64,000 bases of DNA from an uncultured Acidobacteriota bacterium. Its GTDB lineage: Bacteria; Acidobacteriota; Terriglobia; Bryobacterales; Bryobacteraceae. The notes below the pieces were generated by a model, which did no database searches, was not told the origin of the DNA, and saw only the letters and a list, made by a program, of their open reading frames with translations. Below are positions 45,232 through 54,407 of the stretch, in pieces. Position 1 is the stretch's first letter, and each line of letters begins with the position of its first letter. Where the stretch lies: assembly GCA_902826605.1 (NCBI GenBank), contig CADEFM010000010.1, forward strand, positions 62,279 to 126,278, in the 5' to 3' direction. Made by a program: the position numbers and the translations under genes.

Positions 45232-46359
45232 CTAGTTTCCAATGATGCCCTCCCGTTCGAGTACGCGCCGGATCTCCTCGAAGCTGGCTCCAATACTGCC
45301 TTTCGGAAATCGTATTTGACCTAGACCCTGGATATTGGTGAACTCCTCACAGCCTTCTTCGAGGAGGATAATAGCCCTCGTAAAGCCGAGCCGTCCCTGG
45401 AATAGGCCGGCCTCGTGGATAACGTTCATTCGAGCTTGCAGTTTCCCATCTGCTTGCTCATCCTCTGCAGTGAGAATAATGAAGGCGATAGAGGCCGCAT
45501 CCAGCATCTCGGATAAACGCGCTATATTCGTGATTCCTGCAACGGGAACTCGATTGAATTCATCCCAAGGTAAGCGCAAGCGTTCATTGACGAAATCCTT
45601 CAAGTCTTTCCAAACAGAAGATCTTCCGTGGCCGATGAATACATTCGTGCCAATCCTGTCTAAACGGCGTTGACTGTTCTCCATCCGGCCGAGGTACGCG
45701 GCTGCGTTGCGCGCGATCCGATGGAGTTCCTTGCAAGCTCGATGCGAGTCGCGCAGAAAGCTAATGTCGGCGATGATATCCAGGTGGGGCGGTAGGAAAA
45801 GGCCCTGGAGGACTGCCTCCGAATCGCGCGAAACGAGTTGTCCTTTCGGTTTCCATATTTCAACAAAATCGCGCTTCTGTAGGAGTCGAAGTCCACCGAT
45901 ATCTTCCAGAAGCTTGCTTAGATAGTGATCGTTACGCGTGGCGGTCGCCGAGTGCAAAATCGAAACCACCTCATCGAAGTTCGTCTCGAAAACTTGTGCT
46001 CCCTTTTCGCGCATCCGTTCCGACTCCGACAGATCAGGGCGACCGCAAGCGTTATTGATAAAGTGCTTGACTTCCTCGGCGCTATACTGCCTCCAATCTC
46101 CGCGGCTACCCATGTCTCCATATACTTCTTTCAAGCCCCACTCGACACTAAAACTCGAGTTAGCCGGTGGGTGTCGAAAGCCATCGTAGTACACGCGCGC
46201 GTGATAACCCATCCAAGAGCCACTCCATGATTCACCGATTCTACGGGCGCTGTCCTCAAGCGAATTTAAGGTAGCATCGACTCTTGACCATTCACTTGCG
46301 TTGAGGAAATCGTTTAGCCGATCCCTGATTCTCTGTAACTCCGATGAAAGATTACTCAT
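45232..46359 (-). CDS. protein with C-terminal TIR-like nucleotide-binding domain (CAP12/Pycsar-effector type) and unknown N-terminal domain
   Basis: The C-terminal roughly 130 aa are NVFIGHGRSSVWKDLKDFV...IAFIILTAEDEQADGKLQARMNVIHEAGLFQGRLGFTRAIILLEEGCEEFTNIQGLGQIRF. This matches the pattern of the predicted nucleotide-binding TIR-like family (VFIvHG...AivLlTpDD...RaRqNVifElGyf.G.LG..rv..L). ATG at 46359; a TTG at 46431 is an alternative start. Confidence 0.7.
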   Translation of the reverse strand: MSNLSSELQRIRDRLNDFLNASEWSRVDATLNSLEDSARRIGESWSGSWMGYHARVYYDGFRHPPANSSFSVEWGLKEVYGDMGSRGDWRQYSAEEVKHFINNACGRPDLSESERMREKGAQVFETNFDEVVSILHSATATRNDHYLSKLLEDIGGLRLLQKRDFVEIWKPKGQLVSRDSEAVLQGLFLPPHLDIIADISFLRDSHRACKELHRIARNAAAYLGRMENSQRRLDRIGTNVFIGHGRSSVWKDLKDFVNERLRLPWDEFNRVPVAGITNIARLSEMLDAASIAFIILTAEDEQADGKLQARMNVIHEAGLFQGRLGFTRAIILLEEGCEEFTNIQGLGQIRFPKGSIGASFEEIRRVLEREGIIGN

Positions 46360-46480
46360 GTTCTCGCGCACTATTGCCAGAAACGGCTTCGAATATCTTG
46401 TAATCGCCTCAGCAGGTAGAACCGAAGGCAAGGGCCTCGGGTCATTATAAAGAAAAGAAATAGGCGCTCAGCGTGCGCCA

Positions 46481-46825
46481 CTACCATCCTACCTTCCGTT
46501 TCTCCCGATCACTGAGTGTTTCGTGCAACAGAGACTTGATATAAGTCTGGTACGGCAGTCCCTTGCGCTCCGCCTGCTTTCGCGCCAAAGCCAAATCTGC
46601 TTCTGGAATCCGCAAGGAGACCACGGGCGCTGGCGTCCTTCGGGACGCCGCGAGCCGCGCCTGCAGTTTTTCTTTCGTCAACACCTGAGCTTGGCCGCTC
46701 TTCACAGCCGCGAGAAACTGTTTGCCGTGTCTTTCACGATTCCGATACCACCACTCCGCCTCTTCCGCCTCGGTGGCGAATTTCGGCACTACAATTGTGG
46801 ATTGTCTTTCGATCTGCTTCTTCAT
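46481..46825 (-). CDS. brnA: BrnA-family antitoxin
   Basis: The C-terminal RHH-like SLRIPEADLALARKQAERKGLPYQTYIKSLLHE is present. It overlaps the upstream BrnT gene by 4 nt. Confidence 0.75.
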   Translation of the reverse strand: MKKQIERQSTIVVPKFATEAEEAEWWYRNRERHGKQFLAAVKSGQAQVLTKEKLQARLAASRRTPAPVVSLRIPEADLALARKQAERKGLPYQTYIKSLLHETLSDREKRKVGW

Positions 46826-47121
46826 CTTAATTTCTCCAGGAAGAGTTTCCGGTCGGCAACGCCTGCGGGAAAAGCTGTTATGGCCCGGATTTTGCCATCA
46901 CGGGCCGCCCATGCCACCGTCAAGAGGCGGCCTCTATTCGTCAGGCCCACCGAGCGGTACCGCTCTTCGTGGTCGACGATCTCGCATGCCAGATCCATGG
47001 GTTCGTTGTTCATCACCTCTTCGAATTCGGGGGACGATACCCTGTGGACGGCCAAGTGTTTTCTGTTCTCGTCATCCCAATCGAAATCGAGGCGGCCAGT
47101 CACAATGATAGTGTAGCGCAA
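46822..47121 (-). CDS. brnT: BrnT-family (DUF497) toxin
   Basis: FDWDDENRKHLAVHRVSSPEFEEV...EERYRSVGLTNRGRLLTVAWAARDGKIRAITAFPA fits the DUF497 pattern. Confidence 0.75.
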   Translation of the reverse strand: MRYTIIVTGRLDFDWDDENRKHLAVHRVSSPEFEEVMNNEPMDLACEIVDHEERYRSVGLTNRGRLLTVAWAARDGKIRAITAFPAGVADRKLFLEKLR

Positions 47122-47165
47122 CGTATATACGCGGCGGGTTACAGCCCTTGTGAAACAATATAGGC

Positions 47166-47375
47166 ATGAAACGCCAGTTCTCCGTCACGGTTTGGAAAGA
47201 AGAAAACTGGCACGTCTCTCAATGCCTGGATCTGGATGTTGCCAGCCAAGGTGAGACGGAAGATGAGGCTCTGGCCAATCTGAAAGAAGCACTGGAATTG
47301 CACTTCCAAACTCCACGTGCGACCCTCCCGCCCAAGGTTCGGACGATTGAGGTTGAGGTTGGCGCACTCGGATAG
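47166..47375 (+). CDS. HicB-like (UPF0150) antitoxin domain protein, no partner toxin seen
   Basis: FSVTVWKEENWHVSQCLDLDVASQGETEDEALANLKEALELHF is typical of the small HicB N-domain fold. I could find no HicA-like ORF on either side. Confidence 0.6.
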   Translation: MKRQFSVTVWKEENWHVSQCLDLDVASQGETEDEALANLKEALELHFQTPRATLPPKVRTIEVEVGALG

Positions 47376-47400
47376 ACAAATTTGCCGCGACGGCCTCCCC

Positions 47401-47408
47401 ATCTGCTA
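47401..47408. repeat. right copy of 8-bp direct repeat ATCTGCTA
   Basis: It is identical to 45202-45209 and overlaps the extended -10 element of the his leader promoter. Confidence 0.3.
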
Positions 47409-47412
47409 TACT
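47404..47412 (+). promoter_or_regulatory. extended -10 promoter element TGCTATACT for the his leader / his operon
   Basis: TGn-TATACT ends 8 nt before the A of the leader ATG. A weak TTGCCG lies at 47382-47387. Confidence 0.45.
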
Positions 47413-47420
47413 CCAATTTC

Positions 47421-47495
47421 ATGCTTTCCGCCCGCCATCATCACGGACGCCATCATCACCACGGGCATACCATGCCGCGGCGGGCTCACGACTAA
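47421..47495 (+). CDS. hisL: histidine operon leader peptide (24 aa, 9 His)
   Basis: atg ctt tcc gcc cgc cat cat cac gga cgc cat cat cac cac ggg cat acc atg ccg cgg cgg gct cac gac taa translates to MLSARHHHGRHHHHGHTMPRRAHD. It lies directly upstream of the terminator and hisI. Confidence 0.8.
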   Translation: MLSARHHHGRHHHHGHTMPRRAHD

Positions 47496-47532
47496 CCAGA
47501 CATCGATTTCAAACGATTTCGAGAGCCCGCCG
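47478..47532 (+). promoter_or_regulatory. antiterminator helix of the his attenuator
   Basis: CGGCGGGCTC (47478-47487, inside the end of the leader ORF) is perfectly complementary to GAGCCCGCCG (47523-47532). The latter overlaps the 5' arm of the terminator. Confidence 0.65.
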
Positions 47533-47556
47533 GTTGATTCCGGCGGGTTTTCTTTT
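47526..47556 (+). terminator. intrinsic terminator (attenuator) upstream of hisI
   Basis: CCCGCCGG, loop TTGATT, CCGGCGGG, followed by TTTTCTTTT. It ends 28 nt before the hisI ATG. Confidence 0.8.
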
Positions 47557-47583
47557 GGGGCAACAACTTTCTTAGGACATGAC

Positions 47584-47961
47584 ATGACGCAACTCGATTT
47601 CAGCAAGCTCGACGGCCTCCTTCCGGCGGTCATTCAAGATCACCAGACCGGGCGCGTGCTAATGGTCGGCTTCATGAACGATGAGGCCTTCCGCATCACG
47701 GTGACGACCGGGTTCGCTACCTTCTACAGCCGCTCGCGCAACAAGCTGTGGCTCAAGGGGGAAAGCTCCGGCCATAGACTGGTGGTGAAGGAGATCTCCA
47801 CGGATTGCGATCTGGACACGGTGCTGATCAAGGTGGAAGCGCAGGGTCCGGGCGTGTGCCATGAAGGCTACCAGAGCTGCTTCTTCCGCAAGCTGGAGGG
47901 CGGGGAATGGCAGGTGAGCGAGGCGAAGACTTACGATCCCGGCACGGTGTACGGAAACTAA
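47584..47961 (+). CDS. hisI: phosphoribosyl-AMP cyclohydrolase (monofunctional)
   Basis: [24 protein letters not shown]...[16 protein letters not shown]...[11 protein letters not shown]...[14 protein letters not shown]. Confidence 0.9.
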
Positions 47962-47962
47962 C

Positions 47963-48832
47963 ATGAAATTGAAACTCGGCATTCCCAAAGGCAGCCTGGA
48001 AACCGCGACCGTCGATCTCTTCCGGCGCGCGGGGTTTCAGATTACCGTGAGCAGCCGCTCGTACTTCCCGGCGATTGACGATCCGGAAATTGAATGCATG
48101 CTGATTCGCGCGCAGGAAATGGCGCGCTACGTGGAAGATGGCATCCTGGACGCTGGACTCACCGGCCGCGATTGGGTGGAAGAGAACAACGCCAAGGTGG
48201 AAACCGTGGCCGATCTCATCTACGCGAAGCAAAGTTTCGGCAAAGTGCGCTGGGTGCTGGCGGTGCCGGAGTCGTCGTCGGTTCGATCGGTGAAGGATTT
48301 GAACGGCAAGATCATCGCGACCGAGCTGGTCAAAGCCACTGAGCGTTATCTGGCGCGCAACGGGGTCACTGCGAAAGTGGAATTTAGCTGGGGAGCGACG
48401 GAAGTGAAGCCGCCGACGCTCGCCGACGCTATCGTGGAAGTGACGGAGACTGGTTCGTCACTGCGCGCCAATAACCTGCGCATCGTTGAAACCGTGCTGG
48501 AATCGAACACGCAGTTGATCGCGAACGTAGATTCCTGGAAAGATGCGGAAAAACGCCGCAAGCTGGAAGACATGAAGATGCTCTTGCAGGGAGCGATTAA
48601 TGCGCTGGGCAAGGTGGGTCTGATGATGAACGTGGAAAAAACGAATCTCGACCGCGTGCTGGGCGTGCTTCCCGCGCTGAAGCGACCTACGATCTCCGCA
48701 TTGAGCGATGACGGGTGGATCGCGGTGAACACGATCCTGGATGAAACCACGGTGCGCACCATTATTCCTCGGCTCAAGGAAGCCGGGGCGCAGGGCATCG
48801 TGGAGTATCCGCTGAACAAGATCATCATGTAG
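47963..48832 (+). CDS. hisG: ATP phosphoribosyltransferase (long form)
   Basis: [13 protein letters not shown]..., 289 aa including the C-terminal regulatory domain. It starts 1 nt after the hisI stop. Confidence 0.9.
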
Positions 48833-48844
48833 CGGGGTGCATAA

Positions 48845-50068
48845 GTGATCCGGATTCTCACACCCAAAGACGCACAGGCGCTGATTCAACGCAAGGCCGT
48901 CCACTTGCAGGAAGCCGAACGGATCGTAGCGCCTATTCTCGTGGACGTGCGCGATCGCGGTGACGCGGCTCTGCTCCATTACGCCCGCAAGTTCGACCGC
49001 TTCACCGGCGACAGCGTGCGTCTGAAGGTTGCTGGTGCACTAGAGCCTGAGTTCCTTGAGGCAGTGGAAACGGCGGCGAAGAATATTCGCGAGTACGCGC
49101 AAGCGCAGTTGCCAAAGGAATGGTTCATCGACTATCCGGACGGTCGGCGGCTCGGTCAAATCATTCGTCCCTTGGATGCGATGGGCGCGTATGTGCCAGC
49201 GGGGCGTTACCCGCTGCCATCCACGGTGTTGATGACAGTGATTCCGGCGCAGGTAGCGGGCGTGCTCACCACGTGCATCGCGTGCCCGCATCCGAGTGCG
49301 GAGATTCTTGGCATTGCGCACCTGCTTGGCGTCACGCACATGTTTCAGATGGGCGGCGCACAGGCCATCGCTGCGCTCGCGTATGGAACGGAGACAGTGC
49401 CGAAGGTCGATCGAATTGTCGGTCCGGGTAACATCTACGTTGCTGCCGCGAAAAAGTTGATCGCGGGAGAAACCTCCATCGATTTCGTCGCGGGGCCCAC
49501 GGAGATCGTCATCATTGCTGCCGAGGGAAACCCGCGCTGGATCGCGGCGGACCTGCTGGCGCAGGCTGAGCATGATGTGGACGCATCCGCGATTCTATTG
49601 ACCACATCTCGGCGGCTGGCCGAAGGAGTCGCGCGGGAAGTGGAATGGCAAGTGGAAACGCTGCCCACGGCACAAGTGGCACGGCCCGCGATCGATAACA
49701 ACGGAGCTATCGTCGTGGTGGATTCGCTTGACCAGGCGGTAGAACTCTCAAACGCCCTTGCGCCGGAACACCTCGCTCTGCACGATGGAAACCTGCTTGC
49801 GAAAATACGCCATGCAGGCGCGGTCTTCATTGGTCCGCACAGTCCGGAATCGGCTGGAGATTACGCGTCTGGACCGAATCACGTATTGCCTACGTCGGGT
49901 GCGGCGCGGCAAAGGGGTGGGCTCTCGGCTGCGGATTTTGTGAAGGTGATTGCCGTGCAGGAGATGACCCCCGCGGGTCTGCGGCAACTCACGCCGACGA
50001 TTGTCCGTTTAGCGCGCGCGGAAGGATTGGAAGCGCACGCCCGATCCGTGGAGGTTCGCAATGAGTAA
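48845..50068 (+). CDS. hisD: histidinol dehydrogenase
   Basis: GTG start. Motifs seen are GAYVPAGRYPLPSTVLM, IVGPGNIYVAAAK, AGPTEIVIIA, QAEHD and GDYASGPNHVLPT. Confidence 0.9.
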   Translation: MIRILTPKDAQALIQRKAVHLQEAERIVAPILVDVRDRGDAALLHYARKFDRFTGDSVRLKVAGALEPEFLEAVETAAKNIREYAQAQLPKEWFIDYPDGRRLGQIIRPLDAMGAYVPAGRYPLPSTVLMTVIPAQVAGVLTTCIACPHPSAEILGIAHLLGVTHMFQMGGAQAIAALAYGTETVPKVDRIVGPGNIYVAAAKKLIAGETSIDFVAGPTEIVIIAAEGNPRWIAADLLAQAEHDVDASAILLTTSRRLAEGVAREVEWQVETLPTAQVARPAIDNNGAIVVVDSLDQAVELSNALAPEHLALHDGNLLAKIRHAGAVFIGPHSPESAGDYASGPNHVLPTSGAARQRGGLSAADFVKVIAVQEMTPAGLRQLTPTIVRLARAEGLEAHARSVEVRNE

Positions 50069-51122
50069 TCCGCTGCAGCCTCGCCCCGCGGTGAGGAACA
50101 TGGCCCCGTACACTCCGCCGACGGGCAACCGCGCGGGAAAACTGCGTCTGGATTTCAACGAAAATACCATCGGTTGTTCCCCTCGCGTGATCGCAGCGTT
50201 GCAACGCTACCTCAGCGCCGATGCGCTCACGGTGTATCCGGAGTACATGGATGCGATGCGTGAACTGGCTTCGTTTTTCGTGGTCGCCCCGGGTGAGTTG
50301 CTGTTGTCGAACGGGACGGACGAAGCGATCCAGGTTCTGATCAACACCTTCATTGATCACGGTGACGACGTGCTTTTGCTGAAACCTTCCTATGCCATGT
50401 ATCGCTTCTATGCGGAAGTGGCTGGCGCGGATGTGCGCGAAATGGAGTACCGCGAGCACGACTTGGCGTTTCCGCTGGAAGAACTGCTGGCGGCCGTCCG
50501 GCCGGAGACGAAGGCAATTCTGATCGCCAACCCGAATAATCCCACGGGAACCGGAGTCAGTGTGGACGGTGTGCGCCGCATTCTGCAAGCGGCCCCTGAT
50601 GCCGCCGTGCTCATAGATGAGGCCTACTATGAATTCTCCGGTGTAACGGTGCTGCCGCTGCTGCGCGAATACCCAAACCTGTTCGTCAGCCGGACCTTTT
50701 CGAAAGTCTATGGCATGGCCGCGATGCGCTGCGGATGCTTGTTCTCGAATGTGGAAAACGTCCGCTGGATGCACAAGGCGCAGTCGCCTTACAGCGTGAA
50801 CATGCTGGCGGCAGTGGCCGCGCGGGCGGCGGTGCAAGATCGTGAGTATGTGGCAAACTACGTGAAAGAAGTCCTGAGCGCGCGCGACTTTGCATGCGAT
50901 GGATTGCGCAAGCTGGGGATTCCGTTCTATCCGAGCCAGGCAAATTTCGTCCTGTTTCAAGCAGGGGAACGCGCCATCCCCATCCGCGACGCGCTGCGTG
51001 AAAAAGGCGTGCTCGTTCGTGATCGTAGCTATGAGATCCCAGGTTGTGTCCGCGTGACCATCGGAACACGCGGACAAATCGTACGATTCCTGACCGAGTT
51101 GGAGAGCCTGTGGATCAAGTAA
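50061..51122 (+). CDS. hisC: histidinol-phosphate aminotransferase
   Basis: Class-II aminotransferase pattern: LDFNENTIG, NPNNPTG and the PLP lysine region SRTFSKVYGMAAMRCG. It overlaps hisD by 8 nt. Confidence 0.9.
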   Translation: MSNPLQPRPAVRNMAPYTPPTGNRAGKLRLDFNENTIGCSPRVIAALQRYLSADALTVYPEYMDAMRELASFFVVAPGELLLSNGTDEAIQVLINTFIDHGDDVLLLKPSYAMYRFYAEVAGADVREMEYREHDLAFPLEELLAAVRPETKAILIANPNNPTGTGVSVDGVRRILQAAPDAAVLIDEAYYEFSGVTVLPLLREYPNLFVSRTFSKVYGMAAMRCGCLFSNVENVRWMHKAQSPYSVNMLAAVAARAAVQDREYVANYVKEVLSARDFACDGLRKLGIPFYPSQANFVLFQAGERAIPIRDALREKGVLVRDRSYEIPGCVRVTIGTRGQIVRFLTELESLWIK

Positions 51123-51787
51123 TCGTATTTGACATGGACGGCGTGCTTGCCGAAGTGACCGAATCCTACCGCGAGTCGATTGTTCAAACGGTACGCCACT
51201 TCACGGGTAAGACCATCGAGCGAGATCTGATTCAGGATTACAAGAATCGGGGGGGCTGGAACAACGACTGGGCGCTCTCGCAAAAAATTTCTGCCGATTT
51301 GGGCGTGGACGTGGACTACAACACCGTAGTCGACCAATTCAACGTTTTTTTCCTTGGTCCGAAGGGCGACGGCCAGGGACTGATCCTCCGCGAGCAATGG
51401 TTTCCGAAGCCCTGGCTGCTGGAACGCCTGGGGAAGAAGTACGAGCTCTCCATCTTTTCGGGCCGTATCCGATTTGAAGCGGATCTGACGCTGCGCCGCT
51501 TCGCTCCGCAGATTCGTTTTGATCCCACGCTCTACGCCGATGAGATCGACGCGGGCAAGCCAGCACCGGATGGTCTGATTGAAATCCAAAGCCGCCGCCC
51601 CGCGAGCACGCTTTGGTACATCGGCGATACCGTGGATGACGCACGCTGTGCCCGGGCCGCCGGAGTTCCTTTTATCGGTATAGCAGCGCGGACACACACG
51701 AAACGCGGCGAATTGGTCGCGCTGTTTGAACAGGAAAAGGCCGTCGCGATATTTGAAAACGTAAATGAGATCGAGGAGATTCTATGA
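51110..51787 (+). CDS. HAD-IA family hydrolase embedded in the his operon (candidate histidinol-phosphate phosphatase)
   Basis: HAD motif I is [12 protein letters not shown], the lysine motif is GKPAPDG and motif IV is [15 protein letters not shown] at 51110 is the last start that retains the nucleophilic Asp. The stop overlaps the hisB start (ATGA). Confidence 0.7.
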
Positions 51788-52377
51788 AAGCGCGCCGGGC
51801 CGCCGTGGAACGGATCACCAAAGAGACGCAGATTCAGGGCGCTCTCAACATTGATGGCCGCGGCACGTACGAAATCTCCACCGGAGTGCGTTTTCTCGAT
51901 CACATGCTGGAATTGTTCGCGAAGCATGGCGGCTTCGATCTGAAGATCAAAGCAACCGGCGATCTCGATATCGATCAGCACCACACCGTGGAAGACGTCG
52001 GCATTACACTCGGGCAGTTGTTCGCGAAAGCGCTCGGAGACCGCAAAGGTATCAATCGTGCAGGATACTTTGTCTTGCCCATGGACGAGACGCTTGCCGT
52101 GGCGGCCGTGGATCTGGGCGGCCGCCCCGCATTAGTGTACAAGGATCTGGTCCGGGTACGCTTGGTGGGCGACCTCCAAGTTGAGCTAGTGGAAGACTTC
52201 TTCGGCGGCTTTGTGAATCACGCCGGAGCGAATCTGCACGCCAAGATCTTGTACGGCCGCTCCAGTCACCACAAAATAGAAGCCATCTTCAAGTGTTTCG
52301 CCCGTGCGATGAAATACGCCTGCTCGAAGGACGCGCGATTGAAAGATCAATTGCCATCGACCAAGGGGCTTCTGTGA
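51784..52377 (+). CDS. hisB: imidazoleglycerol-phosphate dehydratase (monofunctional)
   Basis: RITKETQI..., [39 protein letters not shown]. Confidence 0.9.
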
Positions 52378-52967
52378 TCTCCATTTTCGACTACGGTGCA
52401 GGCAATCTCCGCTCAGTGGAAAATACGCTCGGCGCGATCGGCGCCGAGTACCAGCTGATCCGGACTGCGGACGAATTGCGCCTGGCGACCAAGGTAATTC
52501 TCCCTGGCGTTGGGCACTTCGGCCAGATGATGCGCAAGCTCGATGAGATGAACGTGCGCGCGGCGCTGATCGACACCATTCGCGCGGGTGTGCCCTTTCT
52601 TGGAATCTGCCTCGGCCTGCAGGCACTGTTCGCGGCCAGTGAGGAAGCGCCCGAAGAACGCGGCCTGGGAATCTTCGAAGGGCAAGTGAGGCGATTTCAA
52701 GGCGACATGCGCATCCCGCATATGGGATGGAATCAATTGGAGCGCGTCCGCCCATCGCGCCTGTTGCGAGACACGGGTGAAAAGCCGTACCTATATTTCG
52801 CCCACAGTTATTACGCCCCGCTCGTGCCCGCCACGGCGGCTTCCTGTGAGTACGCCGTGCCGTATACCGCTGTGCTGGAGCGCGACAATATCTTGGGCGT
52901 CCAGTTCCACCCTGAAAAGTCTGGCGACTTAGGTTTGAAGATTGTGCGTAATTTCGTCGAGAGCTAA
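52374..52967 (+). CDS. hisH: imidazole glycerol phosphate synthase, glutamine amidotransferase subunit
   Basis: GTG 52374 overlaps the hisB stop. Motifs seen are [32 protein letters not shown] and the catalytic-Cys context FHPEKS. Confidence 0.9.
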
Positions 52968-52968
52968 T

Positions 52969-53727
52969 GTGCTAGCTAAACGCATCATCCCCTGTCTGGA
53001 CGTCACCGGCGGCCGCGTCGTGAAGGGCGTAAATTTCGTTAACCTGCGTGACGCAGGTGATCCAGTGGAACTCGCCGCGCGCTATAACCAGCAGGGCGCG
53101 GATGAGCTGGTGTTCCTCGACATCACCGCTTCCAGCGACAACCGCGACACCATGGTGGATGTGGTAGTCCGCACCGCGCGCGAAGTGTTCATCCCGCTTA
53201 CGGTGGGCGGCGGAATCCGCACCGTGGATGACGCGCGCAGGATTCTGCACGCGGGTGCGGACAAAGTTAGCGTAAACACGGCGGCAGTACACAGGCCTGA
53301 ACTCATTAAGGAACTCAGCGAGGAATTTGGCGCACAGGCAGTGGTCTTAGCGATCGACGCACGCCGTCGTCCGTCAGGAGGCTGGAACGTCTTCACGAAA
53401 GGCGGCCGCTACGATGAGGGCATCGACGCCGTGGAATGGGCCGCGCGCGGTGAAGCACTGGGCGCGGGCGAGATTCTGCTGACCTCCATGGATACTGACG
53501 GCGTGCAAACCGGCTTCGACTGCCCGCTCACTCGCGCCGTGCATGATGCCACCCGCATTCCCGTGATCGCCTCCGGCGGCGCTGGAAGACCGGAAGACTT
53601 CGCGGAAGTATTGCGGAACGCGGCCGCCGACGCTGCGTTGGCCGCTTCCATTTTTCACTATGAGACTTACACCGTGGCCGATCTAAAGCAGTTTCTCGCG
53701 AAGCAGGGAATTGAGGTGCGCCCGTGA
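52969..53727 (+). CDS. hisF: imidazole glycerol phosphate synthase, cyclase subunit
   Basis: GTG start giving (M)[11 protein letters not shown]..., followed by [21 protein letters not shown] and IASGGAG. Confidence 0.9.
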
Positions 53728-54407
53728 TTTTCCCCTGTATCGATTTAATGGATGGGAAAGTAGTGCAACTGGTCCAGGGCCGCGACAAAGCTCTGGAGGG
53801 TGATGCGCCGCTGGAAATGCTTCGCAAGTTCGCAGCTTTTCCCGAAATTCAGGTGATCGATCTGGATGCCGCCATGGGCAAAGGCGAAAACGATGCGCTT
53901 GTCGAAATGATAGCGGCGCGTGCGCGATGCCGTGTGGGAGGTGGCGTCCGCACGCCGCAACGCGCTCGCCGACTGATTGAGCAAGGCGCTCACCGCGTGA
54001 TTGTTGGAACGGCGGCGTTCACTCCCGTGATGACGCAGATCGCCTCCGCTGTGGGGCCAGAGCGAATTGTGATCGCCCTCGACTCCAAAAATGGAAAAGT
54101 TGTCGTCAAGGGGTGGCAAGAAGCGACGAATCTAACGGCCGAAGCCGTTATCCGCCAGCTCGAACCCTTATGCAGCGGCTTTCTCTGCACGTATGTCGAT
54201 AAAGAAGGCATGATGCAGGGGACCGATCTCGATTGGTTCCGGCGTCTCCGCTCGGCAACCAAGCACGAAATCACCGCGGCGGGCGGCATCACCACGCTGG
54301 ATGAGGTACACGCGCTGGGCGAGATGAACGTGCACGCAGCGCTCGGCATGGCGATCTATACGGGCCGGCTGGACTTAGCTGAGCTGGCGAGGGCCAATCG
54401 CATATGA
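53724..54407 (+). CDS. hisA: 1-(5-phosphoribosyl)-5-[(5-phosphoribosylamino)methylideneamino]imidazole-4-carboxamide isomerase (HisA family)
   Basis: [30 protein letters not shown] and [11 protein letters not shown] are present. At 227 aa it is shorter than typical HisA. It is the last gene of the operon. Confidence 0.75.

Follow-up and report, generated by a model that had tools for sequence, protein, structure and literature searches.

We analysed a 64 kb stretch of DNA (hereafter the window, whose positions serve as coordinates throughout) from contig CADEFM010000010.1 of an uncultured bacterium of the Bryobacteraceae, phylum Acidobacteriota. On its forward strand, a nine-gene histidine biosynthesis operon that begins with hisI is preceded by a short histidine-rich open reading frame (ORF), by a promoter element abutting this ORF and by RNA segments able to pair in alternative ways. 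We propose, with a probability of about 0.85, that these parts form a ribosome-mediated transcription attenuator of the trp/his type that would control hisIGDC-HAD-hisBHFA. The components are given below; in the leader analyses, counts over 80 sequences refer to 79 relative loci plus the window.

47402–47412 (+): promoter, an extended -10 element (T-n-TG-n-TATACT) without a conserved -35; TAnnnT in 79 of 80 sequences, TG extension in 76 of 80
47413–47420 (+): discriminator of 8 nt with a pyrimidine-tract end (CCAATTTC)
47421–47495 (+): hisL-like leader ORF of 24 codons, MLSARHHHGRHHHHGHTMPRRAHD, with a counterpart in 79 of 80 relative loci
47430–47436 (+): region 1 (GCCCGCC), codons 4–6, 5' strand of the predicted anti-antiterminator helix 1:2 in the minimum free energy structure
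47436–47468 (+): regulatory His codons (codons 6–8, 11–14 and 16); the His run is kept in relatives
47478–47487 (+): region 2 (CGGCGGGCUC), codons 20–23, its last base 6 nt before the stop codon; alternative partner of region 1 or region 3
47499–47520 (+): small hairpin in the spacer that separates the leader stop codon from the terminator; it becomes the apical part of the antiterminator stem-loop when the window is folded
47521–47556 (+): predicted intrinsic terminator (-21.5 kcal/mol), with region 3 at 47521–47533, the loop at 47534–47539, region 4 at 47540–47552 and the U tract UUUUCUUUU at 47548–47556
47574–47577 (+): Shine-Dalgarno (SD) sequence of hisI (AGGA)
47584–54407 (+): operon hisI-hisG-hisD-hisC-(HAD hydrolase)-hisB-hisH-hisF-hisA, nine genes

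The -10 element TGCTATACT (47404–47412) is separated by the 8-nt discriminator from the leader ATG at 47421, whose A is the earliest purine within the usual range of start sites. The leader contains 9 His among its 24 codons, 8 of them within 11 codons, and ends with the stop codon TAA at 47493–47495; it is thus a short ORF placed before a biosynthetic operon and enriched in codons for the end product of that operon. Ribosome stalling would be expected on the His codons at 47436–47468 when His-tRNA is scarce. Defining a His-rich mini-ORF by an ATG start, 10–45 codons and at least 5 His in 11 codons, we found exactly one on both strands of the window, namely the leader, against a mean of 0.06 and a maximum of 1 in block-shuffled windows. 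The window was also scanned for further leaderless mini-ORFs enriched in a single amino acid, and none was found. The hisI gene itself starts with the ATG at 47584. All positions and sequences that a preliminary description of the locus had given for 47404–47556 and for the hisI ATG were correct on recheck.

The leader ORF is absent from public gene calls made at this locus on identical contigs.

Alternative folds of the leader RNA

The full leader folds with -52.5 kcal/mol, a z-score of -2.95 relative to dinucleotide shuffles. Within it, CGGCGGGCTC (47478–47487) is perfectly complementary to GAGCCCGCCG (47523–47532), and the resulting antiterminator helix 2:3 has a duplex energy of -25.9 kcal/mol. 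Region 2 has a second potential partner at the beginning of the ORF: GGCGGGC (47479–47485) pairs with GCCCGCC (47430–47436) in helix 1:2, the best duplex having -17.9 kcal/mol. The terminator is built on a core GC stem of 8 bp, CCCGCCGG (47526–47533) with CCGGCGGG (47540–47547), followed by TTTTCTTTT (47548–47556); its complete stem comprises 13 bp (47521–47533 with 47540–47552) and runs into the U tract. Because of this extension into the U tract, a limitation of the tool, a simple terminator scan did not list 47521–47556.

We then folded shortened and masked forms of the transcript. Nascent RNA that reaches the terminator loop and still lacks region 4 folds into helix 2:3 with -26.4 kcal/mol. 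Masking 47478–47505, the footprint of a ribosome at the stop codon, covers region 2 and abolishes helix 2:3, while masking the first His codons of the window covers region 1 as well. The leader thus combines a predicted intrinsic terminator, a mutually exclusive antiterminator and an anti-antiterminator helix 1:2, the parts by which trp/his-type attenuators are recognized.

The preliminary description had called for a comparison of terminator and antiterminator by folding, and both helices were found. The switch it had proposed comprised three regions only. Regions 2, 3 and 4 of that proposal stand; helix 1:2 (47430–47436 with 47479–47485), conserved and covarying as shown below, had been missed.

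Conservation and covariation in Bryobacterales

A scan with the HisI protein, restricted to one genome per GTDB species, yielded 80 relative loci with HisI 73–88% identical to that of the window, nearly all named Bryobacterales, Bryobacteraceae or Solibacteraceae. Overall, we compared the interpretation with about 120 related loci. Leader starts were defined with an explicit model of the -10 element and its spacing, as plain upstream extension overshot into ATGs overlapping the -10.

A His-rich mini-ORF lies at most 200 nt upstream of hisI in 79 of the 80 relative loci. These leaders always start with ATG, have 15–25 codons and contain 3–9 His (median 6), which amounts to 30% of all residues. 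The position is specific: 74 of the 78 His-rich mini-ORFs present in 611 kb of relative loci sit upstream of hisI, and the element is always found in front of this gene, whatever genes lie further upstream. Outside the His run the peptides differ widely (MFVARRHHHGPHHHHG..., MHSAHHHHHRHVWRSAAI and MAAITVARHHHHHHAH... are examples), to the point of forming unrelated-looking types such as MFVARRHHHGPHHHHGHP.PRRAHS, MHSAHHHHHRHVWRSAAI, MA..TVARHHHHHHA.TRRA.F and MFAARHH.HPHHGHAVTG. What is conserved is the His run and the reading frame, not a protein.

The sole genome locus without the element, L080 (L080:1-650), has no His-rich ORF in the 640 nt available upstream of hisI. It comes from a bin with the label Chthoniobacterales but encodes a HisI 75% identical to that of the window. 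Loss of the element, a different operon start or mis-binning are possible reasons for this exception.

In 80 of 80 sequences, a hairpin with a U tract behind it lies 17–45 nt past the leader stop codon, with energies of -13 to -26 kcal/mol. When the whole leader was searched for the best duplex of the terminator 5' arm, the partner fell within the final codons of the ORF for 77 of the 80 sequences (median -19 kcal/mol), the partner strand ending a few nt from the stop codon. In the MAFFT alignment A1, where regions 2–4 are well aligned, 79% of cells of helix 2:3 are paired, compared to 27–42% when the partner is slid by 1–3 columns. The outer pairs of this helix covary, with 26 UA and 24 GC at columns 99/157 and 19 GC and 17 CG at columns 100/156. 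None of 500 shuffles, a control that ignores relatedness between the sequences, matched the covariation score, the percentage of paired cells or the count of cells changed on both sides.

Region 1 is misaligned in A1 because the N-terminal length varies; helix 1:2 was therefore tested by a duplex search in each sequence and by a contingency table of motifs rather than by column counts. Its median energy in relatives is -16.5 kcal/mol. GUCGC/GCGAC alternates with GCCGC/GCGGC, and 25 of the 29 sequences with a common motif on both strands are consistent with pairing (21 A-U, 4 G-C, 3 A·C and 0 G·U). Judged from these patterns, the conserved residues 'AR', ahead of the His run, and 'RRA', close to the C terminus, reflect constraints on the RNA. 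Leaders of the WRSAA type support this view, as they keep the pairing with region 3 with a different peptide. The sequence of the spacer hairpin (47499–47520) is without conservation among relatives.

We also placed a ribosome footprint on each leader, spanning -15 to +12 nt relative to the first nucleotide of the codon in the A site. With the first codon of the His run in the A site, region 2 is entirely free in 77 of 78 loci; with the stop codon there, the median coverage of paired region-2 bases is 89%. In the window, region 1 is just upstream of the His run, so that a ribosome stalled at the first His codons masks region 1 and frees region 2, in line with the trp/his paradigm.

The relatives thus bear out every part of the interpretation drawn from the window. 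The claimed His leader peptide has its counterpart in 79 of 80 relative loci, and the search of upstream regions of his genes that the preliminary description had suggested found both mini-ORF and terminator conserved. Mutual exclusion of terminator and antiterminator is confirmed by the position of the partner strand in 77 of 80 sequences, by covariation and by the 79% of paired cells. The idea that ribosome position selects between the helices gains support from the footprints, and the leaderless reading of a -10 abutting the ATG with no SD gains it from the fixed spacing and the pyrimidine tract described below.

The element in Terriglobales and divergent lineages

A second protein search with HisI returned close relatives only (79–97% identity) and no distant lineages. 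We therefore turned to other probes. A pattern scan of metagenomes (TATACT-N7-9-ATG-N6-30-(CAY)5) gave 120 loci. About 36 of them belong to the same family and continue with hisI-hisG-hisD-hisC. They include divergent forms with HisI 55–63% identical and short peptides such as MLSHIHHHHHHHSMA. In one divergent subfamily (L141, L152, L187 and L194) the leaders have 14–17 codons, region 2 is found just 3' of the stop codon and the His codons pair with the codons directly after them. Other matches of the scan, with MHGNHHHHH... repeats or long ORFs, were discarded as off-target.

Further metagenome loci (L088/L111, L143 and L184) carry His-rich mini-ORFs and terminators before hisG-hisD. Their HisG shares only 27% and their HisD 44–46% identity with the proteins of the window, and these loci probably represent unrelated hisL-hisG arrangements that happen to match the pattern.

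At one locus, L180, HisG is 62% identical, and its close HisG relatives were named Terriglobales by their submitters. Four further Terriglobales lineages were sampled through their HisG proteins, and all four have the element, with TAnnnT 7–10 nt before the ATG; MTSLSHGHRHHHHH..VSAEVYT, MVSLVHRHHHHHAHSASAGVSG and MRSHRLHRHHHHAHSAPAGVPF are examples of their leaders. The terminator, GCCCGCUGA...UCAGCGGGC with a U tract, belongs to the same four-region layout written in different sequences: GACUUCGCUGUCAC for region 1, GUGUCAGCGGAGG for region 2, GCCCGCUGAC for region 3 and CAGCGGGC for region 4. Pairing of region 2 both with region 3 and with region 1 (nt 2–17) is clear in three of the four lineages and in L180; helix 1:2 is weak in L205 (-12.4 kcal/mol) and L206 (-6.2 kcal/mol). 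The CCG/CGG of Bryobacterales is replaced by CUG/CAG in Terriglobales, jointly in regions 3, 4 and 2. We regard this joint change as the strongest single evidence for the proposed alternative helices.

Start of the leader transcript

Anchored on the -10, the 80 sequences give the logo T.TGcTATACT, with no -35 and no information content further upstream. As the conserved block starts at the -10 with nothing before it, it begins at a promoter. The distance from the -10 to the ATG is 8 nt in 61 of 80 sequences, 9 nt in 13, 7 nt in 2, 10 nt in 1 and 11 nt in 2. T occupies positions -3 and -2 in 70 of 80, the last three positions are T, T and C/T in about 88%, and the last 4 nt before the ATG are purine-free in 55 of 80. 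The -10 and the pyrimidine tract fill the space before the ATG, which leaves no room for an SD. From what is generally known of start sites, the pyrimidine tract would favour the A, the first purine, as the start. A simple sigma-70 scan found no -35/-10 pair at the locus; this is expected for an extended -10 promoter, and we did not count it as evidence.

Leaders of the family thus lack an SD and have TAnnnT immediately upstream, with one exception. At L041 (L041:3860-3919) the -10 lies about 20 nt upstream and GGGAG is found 5 nt before the ATG, making it the only member with a conventional SD. By its sequence this locus would be a natural 'leadered' variant.

A comparable arrangement is found at other genes of the window. 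At seven long ORFs, TANNNT precedes the ATG by exactly 6 nt, against a background of less than 1 per offset:

2325, 10820, 38565 and 44171 (+); 56284, 5543 and 941 (-): ATGs with TANNNT at 6 nt, several with signal-peptide-like N termini

Leaderless genes probably account for a sizeable share of those in this genome. Zheng et al. (2011) predicted 9.7–19.4% leaderless genes in three Acidobacteria (PMC3160421). Taken together, we consider it probable that the 5' untranslated region (UTR) of the his leader measures 0–2 nt.

Proposed mechanism and its alternatives

The model rests on the anatomy of the sequence, on the energies of its alternative folds, on conservation and covariation and on footprint geometry; from these we infer where transcription starts, that the leader is translated, that intrinsic termination occurs in vivo and that the switch responds to histidine. 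The extended -10 (47404–47412) would start transcription at the AUG at 47421 or 1–2 nt before it. Lying near the 5' end, the 24 codons would be translated without an SD. When charged His-tRNA is abundant, the ribosome would reach the stop codon at 47493 and cover region 2; the 3:4 terminator would then form and the polymerase stop at about 47556. When charged His-tRNA is scarce, the ribosome would halt early in the His run, from 47436 onward, where it would cover region 1 and leave region 2 free, to pair with region 3 as soon as the latter is made. No terminator would form, and the operon would be transcribed. In the absence of any leader translation, helix 1:2 would form and termination would be the default.

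Several observations weigh against this model or parts of it. At equilibrium, the terminator of the full transcript is more stable than the antiterminator even with region 2 free; the choice must therefore be kinetic and co-transcriptional, as in E. coli and the classical systems. The window has a weaker helix 1:2 (-17.9 kcal/mol) than helix 2:3 (-25.9 kcal/mol), which makes termination in the absence of translation less secure here than in relatives. The statistics of helix 2:3 are not uniformly strong: counts of pairs and of pair types are unexceptional (reached in 43 and 32 of the 500 shuffles), the shuffles disregard common descent, and the z-scores of single 2:3 duplexes are modest (mean -1.8), the latter owing to the high G+C content of the region. 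Within Bryobacterales the terminator core GCCCGCC/GGCGGGC hardly varies, and covariation in helix 3:4 is weak. As for the start, the spacing of 8 nt is 2 nt longer than at the putative leaderless genes of the window. The transcript may hence start at the A or 1–2 nt upstream, and a 5' UTR of 1–2 nt is as likely as a true 5'-AUG. Finally, we know of no study of transcription-translation coupling or of intrinsic termination in Acidobacteriota.

The same attenuator could operate on a transcript that is not leaderless, starting further upstream by read-through from the DUF7387 gene or at an unrecognised promoter, with SD-independent initiation at the leader. There is no terminator between 47375 and the -10 box, the sigma-70 scan gave no -35/-10 pair, the spacing exceeds that of other putative leaderless genes by 2 nt, and hisI lacks an SD in most relatives, so that SD-free initiation on internal AUGs may be common in the group. 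We nevertheless find this unlikely: over 79 loci, conservation starts exactly at T.TGnTAnnnT while the upstream genes differ, the spacing is fixed at 8–9 nt in 74 of 80 sequences, every leader uses ATG as leaderless initiation requires, and the single locus with a displaced -10, L041, has acquired GGGAG. A different effector would be the translation of hisI, the hairpin near its start modulating ribosome access. In most relatives (loci L001–L079) the hisI ATG indeed follows the terminator stem by 7–21 nt in a U-rich stretch; an hisI SD core of at least 4 nt is found in 18 of 79 relatives and none in 28 of 79, hisG having one clearly more often. A precedent for action on translation exists (bioRxiv 10.1101/834739). 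Yet the U tract behind 80 of 80 hairpins is typical of intrinsic terminators, and the gap between terminator and hisI widens to 30–96 nt in several relatives. The window is itself atypical, with a 27-nt gap and AGGA present, and this hisI SD (47574–47577) lies unpaired 22 nt beyond the stem. Control mainly through hisI translation is thus very improbable in our view, whereas the RNA switch may also affect hisI translation, in a dual effect with transcription.

It is harder still to see the mini-ORF as a functional His-rich micropeptide, for instance a metal binder, or its His codons as incidental and the hairpin as the end of the upstream unit. His-rich peptides can bind Ni, Zn or Co, and a same-strand gene does end at 47375. 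But the element always stands before hisI, whatever lies upstream, and a promoter separates the upstream gene from the hairpin. Apart from the His run, the peptides vary freely in sequence and in length. RNA pairing with region 3 and covariation with the terminator flank account for the conserved C-terminal 'RRA' or 'WRSAA'. We attach next to no credence to these two readings, and retain attenuation of transcription by the leader ribosome.

A more ambitious version of the attenuator is tentative, and we rather doubt it: the Terriglobia his attenuator would be a three-input device specific to leaderless mRNA, with hiding of the AUG, dual control and use before other operons. As region 1 would begin at nt 2–10 of the transcript, helix 1:2 would hide the AUG at its 5' end. 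Loading of a 70S ribosome within the short time before region 2 is made would then be a further signal read by the switch, and his expression would be tied to global initiation capacity in addition to His-tRNA. In most relatives, with hisI lacking an SD and starting 7–21 nt after the stem, refolding could gate hisI translation too. If similar leaderless leaders do precede other amino-acid operons, a dominant soil phylum would control its amino-acid operons mainly in this way.

Relation to known leaders

We searched Rfam for known families. At E ≤ 10, the segment 46800–48200 gave only chance matches (SNORD50, anti-hemB and ylbH), far below gathering scores, and at gathering score no family matched any of 12 related loci. 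For lack of an Rfam match we rejected homology to His_leader (RF00514), to the T-box or to named Acidobacteria motifs. A histidine T-box leader can be dismissed on length as well: T-box leaders measure about 200–300 nt, and the present leader, at about 135 nt, is much shorter. In the full-text literature we found no description of the element for Acidobacteria, Solibacter or Bryobacter, the survey of Lopatovskaya et al. (2010) lying outside the coverage.

The enterobacterial hisL (RF00514) shares the logic of the element: a short ORF with a His run, helices selected by the position of the ribosome, an intrinsic terminator ahead of the first his gene and a signal given by the charging of His-tRNA. 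It differs in that no sequence or structure homology is detectable, the first gene here is hisI and not hisG, and the leader here has no SD. The His codons are interrupted (HHHGRHHHHGH) here and seven in a row there. Moreover, our element has four regions and is trp-like in this respect, while the his leader of E. coli and Salmonella follows a six-segment scheme, A–F. An origin independent of the enterobacterial hisL is likely.

The statement in the preliminary description that leader-peptide attenuators are documented mostly in Proteobacteria is out of date, since they are known from Actinobacteria, Firmicutes and Bacteroidetes; the accompanying remark on Acidobacteriota stands, as no description was found there. 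Parallels for the arrangement come from Actinobacteria. Leaderless leader peptides with mapped starts are described in Streptomyces lividans (PMC8079986) and Corynebacterium glutamicum (PMC11857589). In these attenuators (ilvL, trpL and leuL of C. glutamicum; leuL, trpL, ilvL and thrL, among others, of S. lividans) transcription starts at the leader ORF, which has no ribosome-binding site. Like our element, they have TAnnnT a few nt upstream, a hairpin and U stretch downstream and a 5'-proximal anti-antiterminator hairpin; in C. glutamicum this hairpin can also prevent leaderless initiation (PMC11857589). Phylum and amino acid are different, and the start is here predicted from sequence. For histidine, a T-box-like leader was proposed in C. 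glutamicum (PMC3896937).

His attenuators are known in gamma-proteobacteria, and candidates were reported in three lineages of Firmicutes, namely the B. cereus group, Peptostreptococcaceae and Erysipelotrichales (PMC9413887; PMC2965389). The Firmicutes candidates too are lineage-specific and independently evolved, combine 3–5 consecutive His codons with a terminator and antiterminator, and are known from comparative genomics only. They differ from our element in not being reported as leaderless in these two papers, and their sequences and gene order are unrelated. Lastly, leaderless short ORFs with polycysteine in mycobacteria remodel downstream RNA through ribosome stalling and act on translation (bioRxiv 10.1101/834739); they are likewise leaderless sensory short ORFs, the amino acid sensed there being cysteine.

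The element appears to be a very well conserved, lineage-specific member of the attenuator class with an apparently independent origin, found in at least two orders (Bryobacterales and Terriglobales). It would combine His sensing with a leaderless arrangement so far described in Actinobacteria; the concept of attenuation is unchanged. Acidobacteriota are among the most abundant soil bacteria, and their gene regulation is very little studied. Here both the input (His-tRNA charging) and the output (the nine-gene his operon) can be predicted. If the model is true, transcription and translation would be coupled in these slow-growing bacteria, 70S initiation at a 5'-terminal AUG would be rapid enough to direct the choice of a polymerase that is some 130 nt further on, and canonical intrinsic terminators would function in Acidobacteriota. 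Genome annotation would gain, and the element could possibly serve as a compact histidine-responsive part for acidobacterial genetics.

The operon and neighbouring genes

HisI, HisG, HisD, HisC, the HAD hydrolase and HisB were assigned from NCBIfam matches, whereas hisH, hisF and hisA were assigned by judging ORF translations. The HAD-superfamily hydrolase between hisC and hisB (51044–51787, +) matches TIGR01548 below the family cut-off and Pfam HAD_2; it is a candidate for the histidinol-phosphate phosphatase step. The TTG listed as its start overlaps hisC by 79 nt; translation probably begins at a later codon, close to the conserved DMDG motif.

The gene that ends upstream of the his promoter is an ORF of 69 amino acids at 47166–47375 (+), with a Pfam DUF7387 match above cut-off. 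Public calls on identical contigs annotate instead an opposite-strand ORF of 87 amino acids without family match (47139–47402, -), which is probably a mis-call. Directly upstream of the his promoter region lies a small defence or toxin-antitoxin islet on the minus strand (45232–47121, -). It encodes a 399-amino-acid protein with a CAP12/PCTIR TIR-like domain (45232–46431, -), a CopG/BrnA-like antitoxin (46481–46825, -) and a BrnT toxin (46822–47121, -). In relatives, the position of this TIR/BrnT islet is occupied by different genes.

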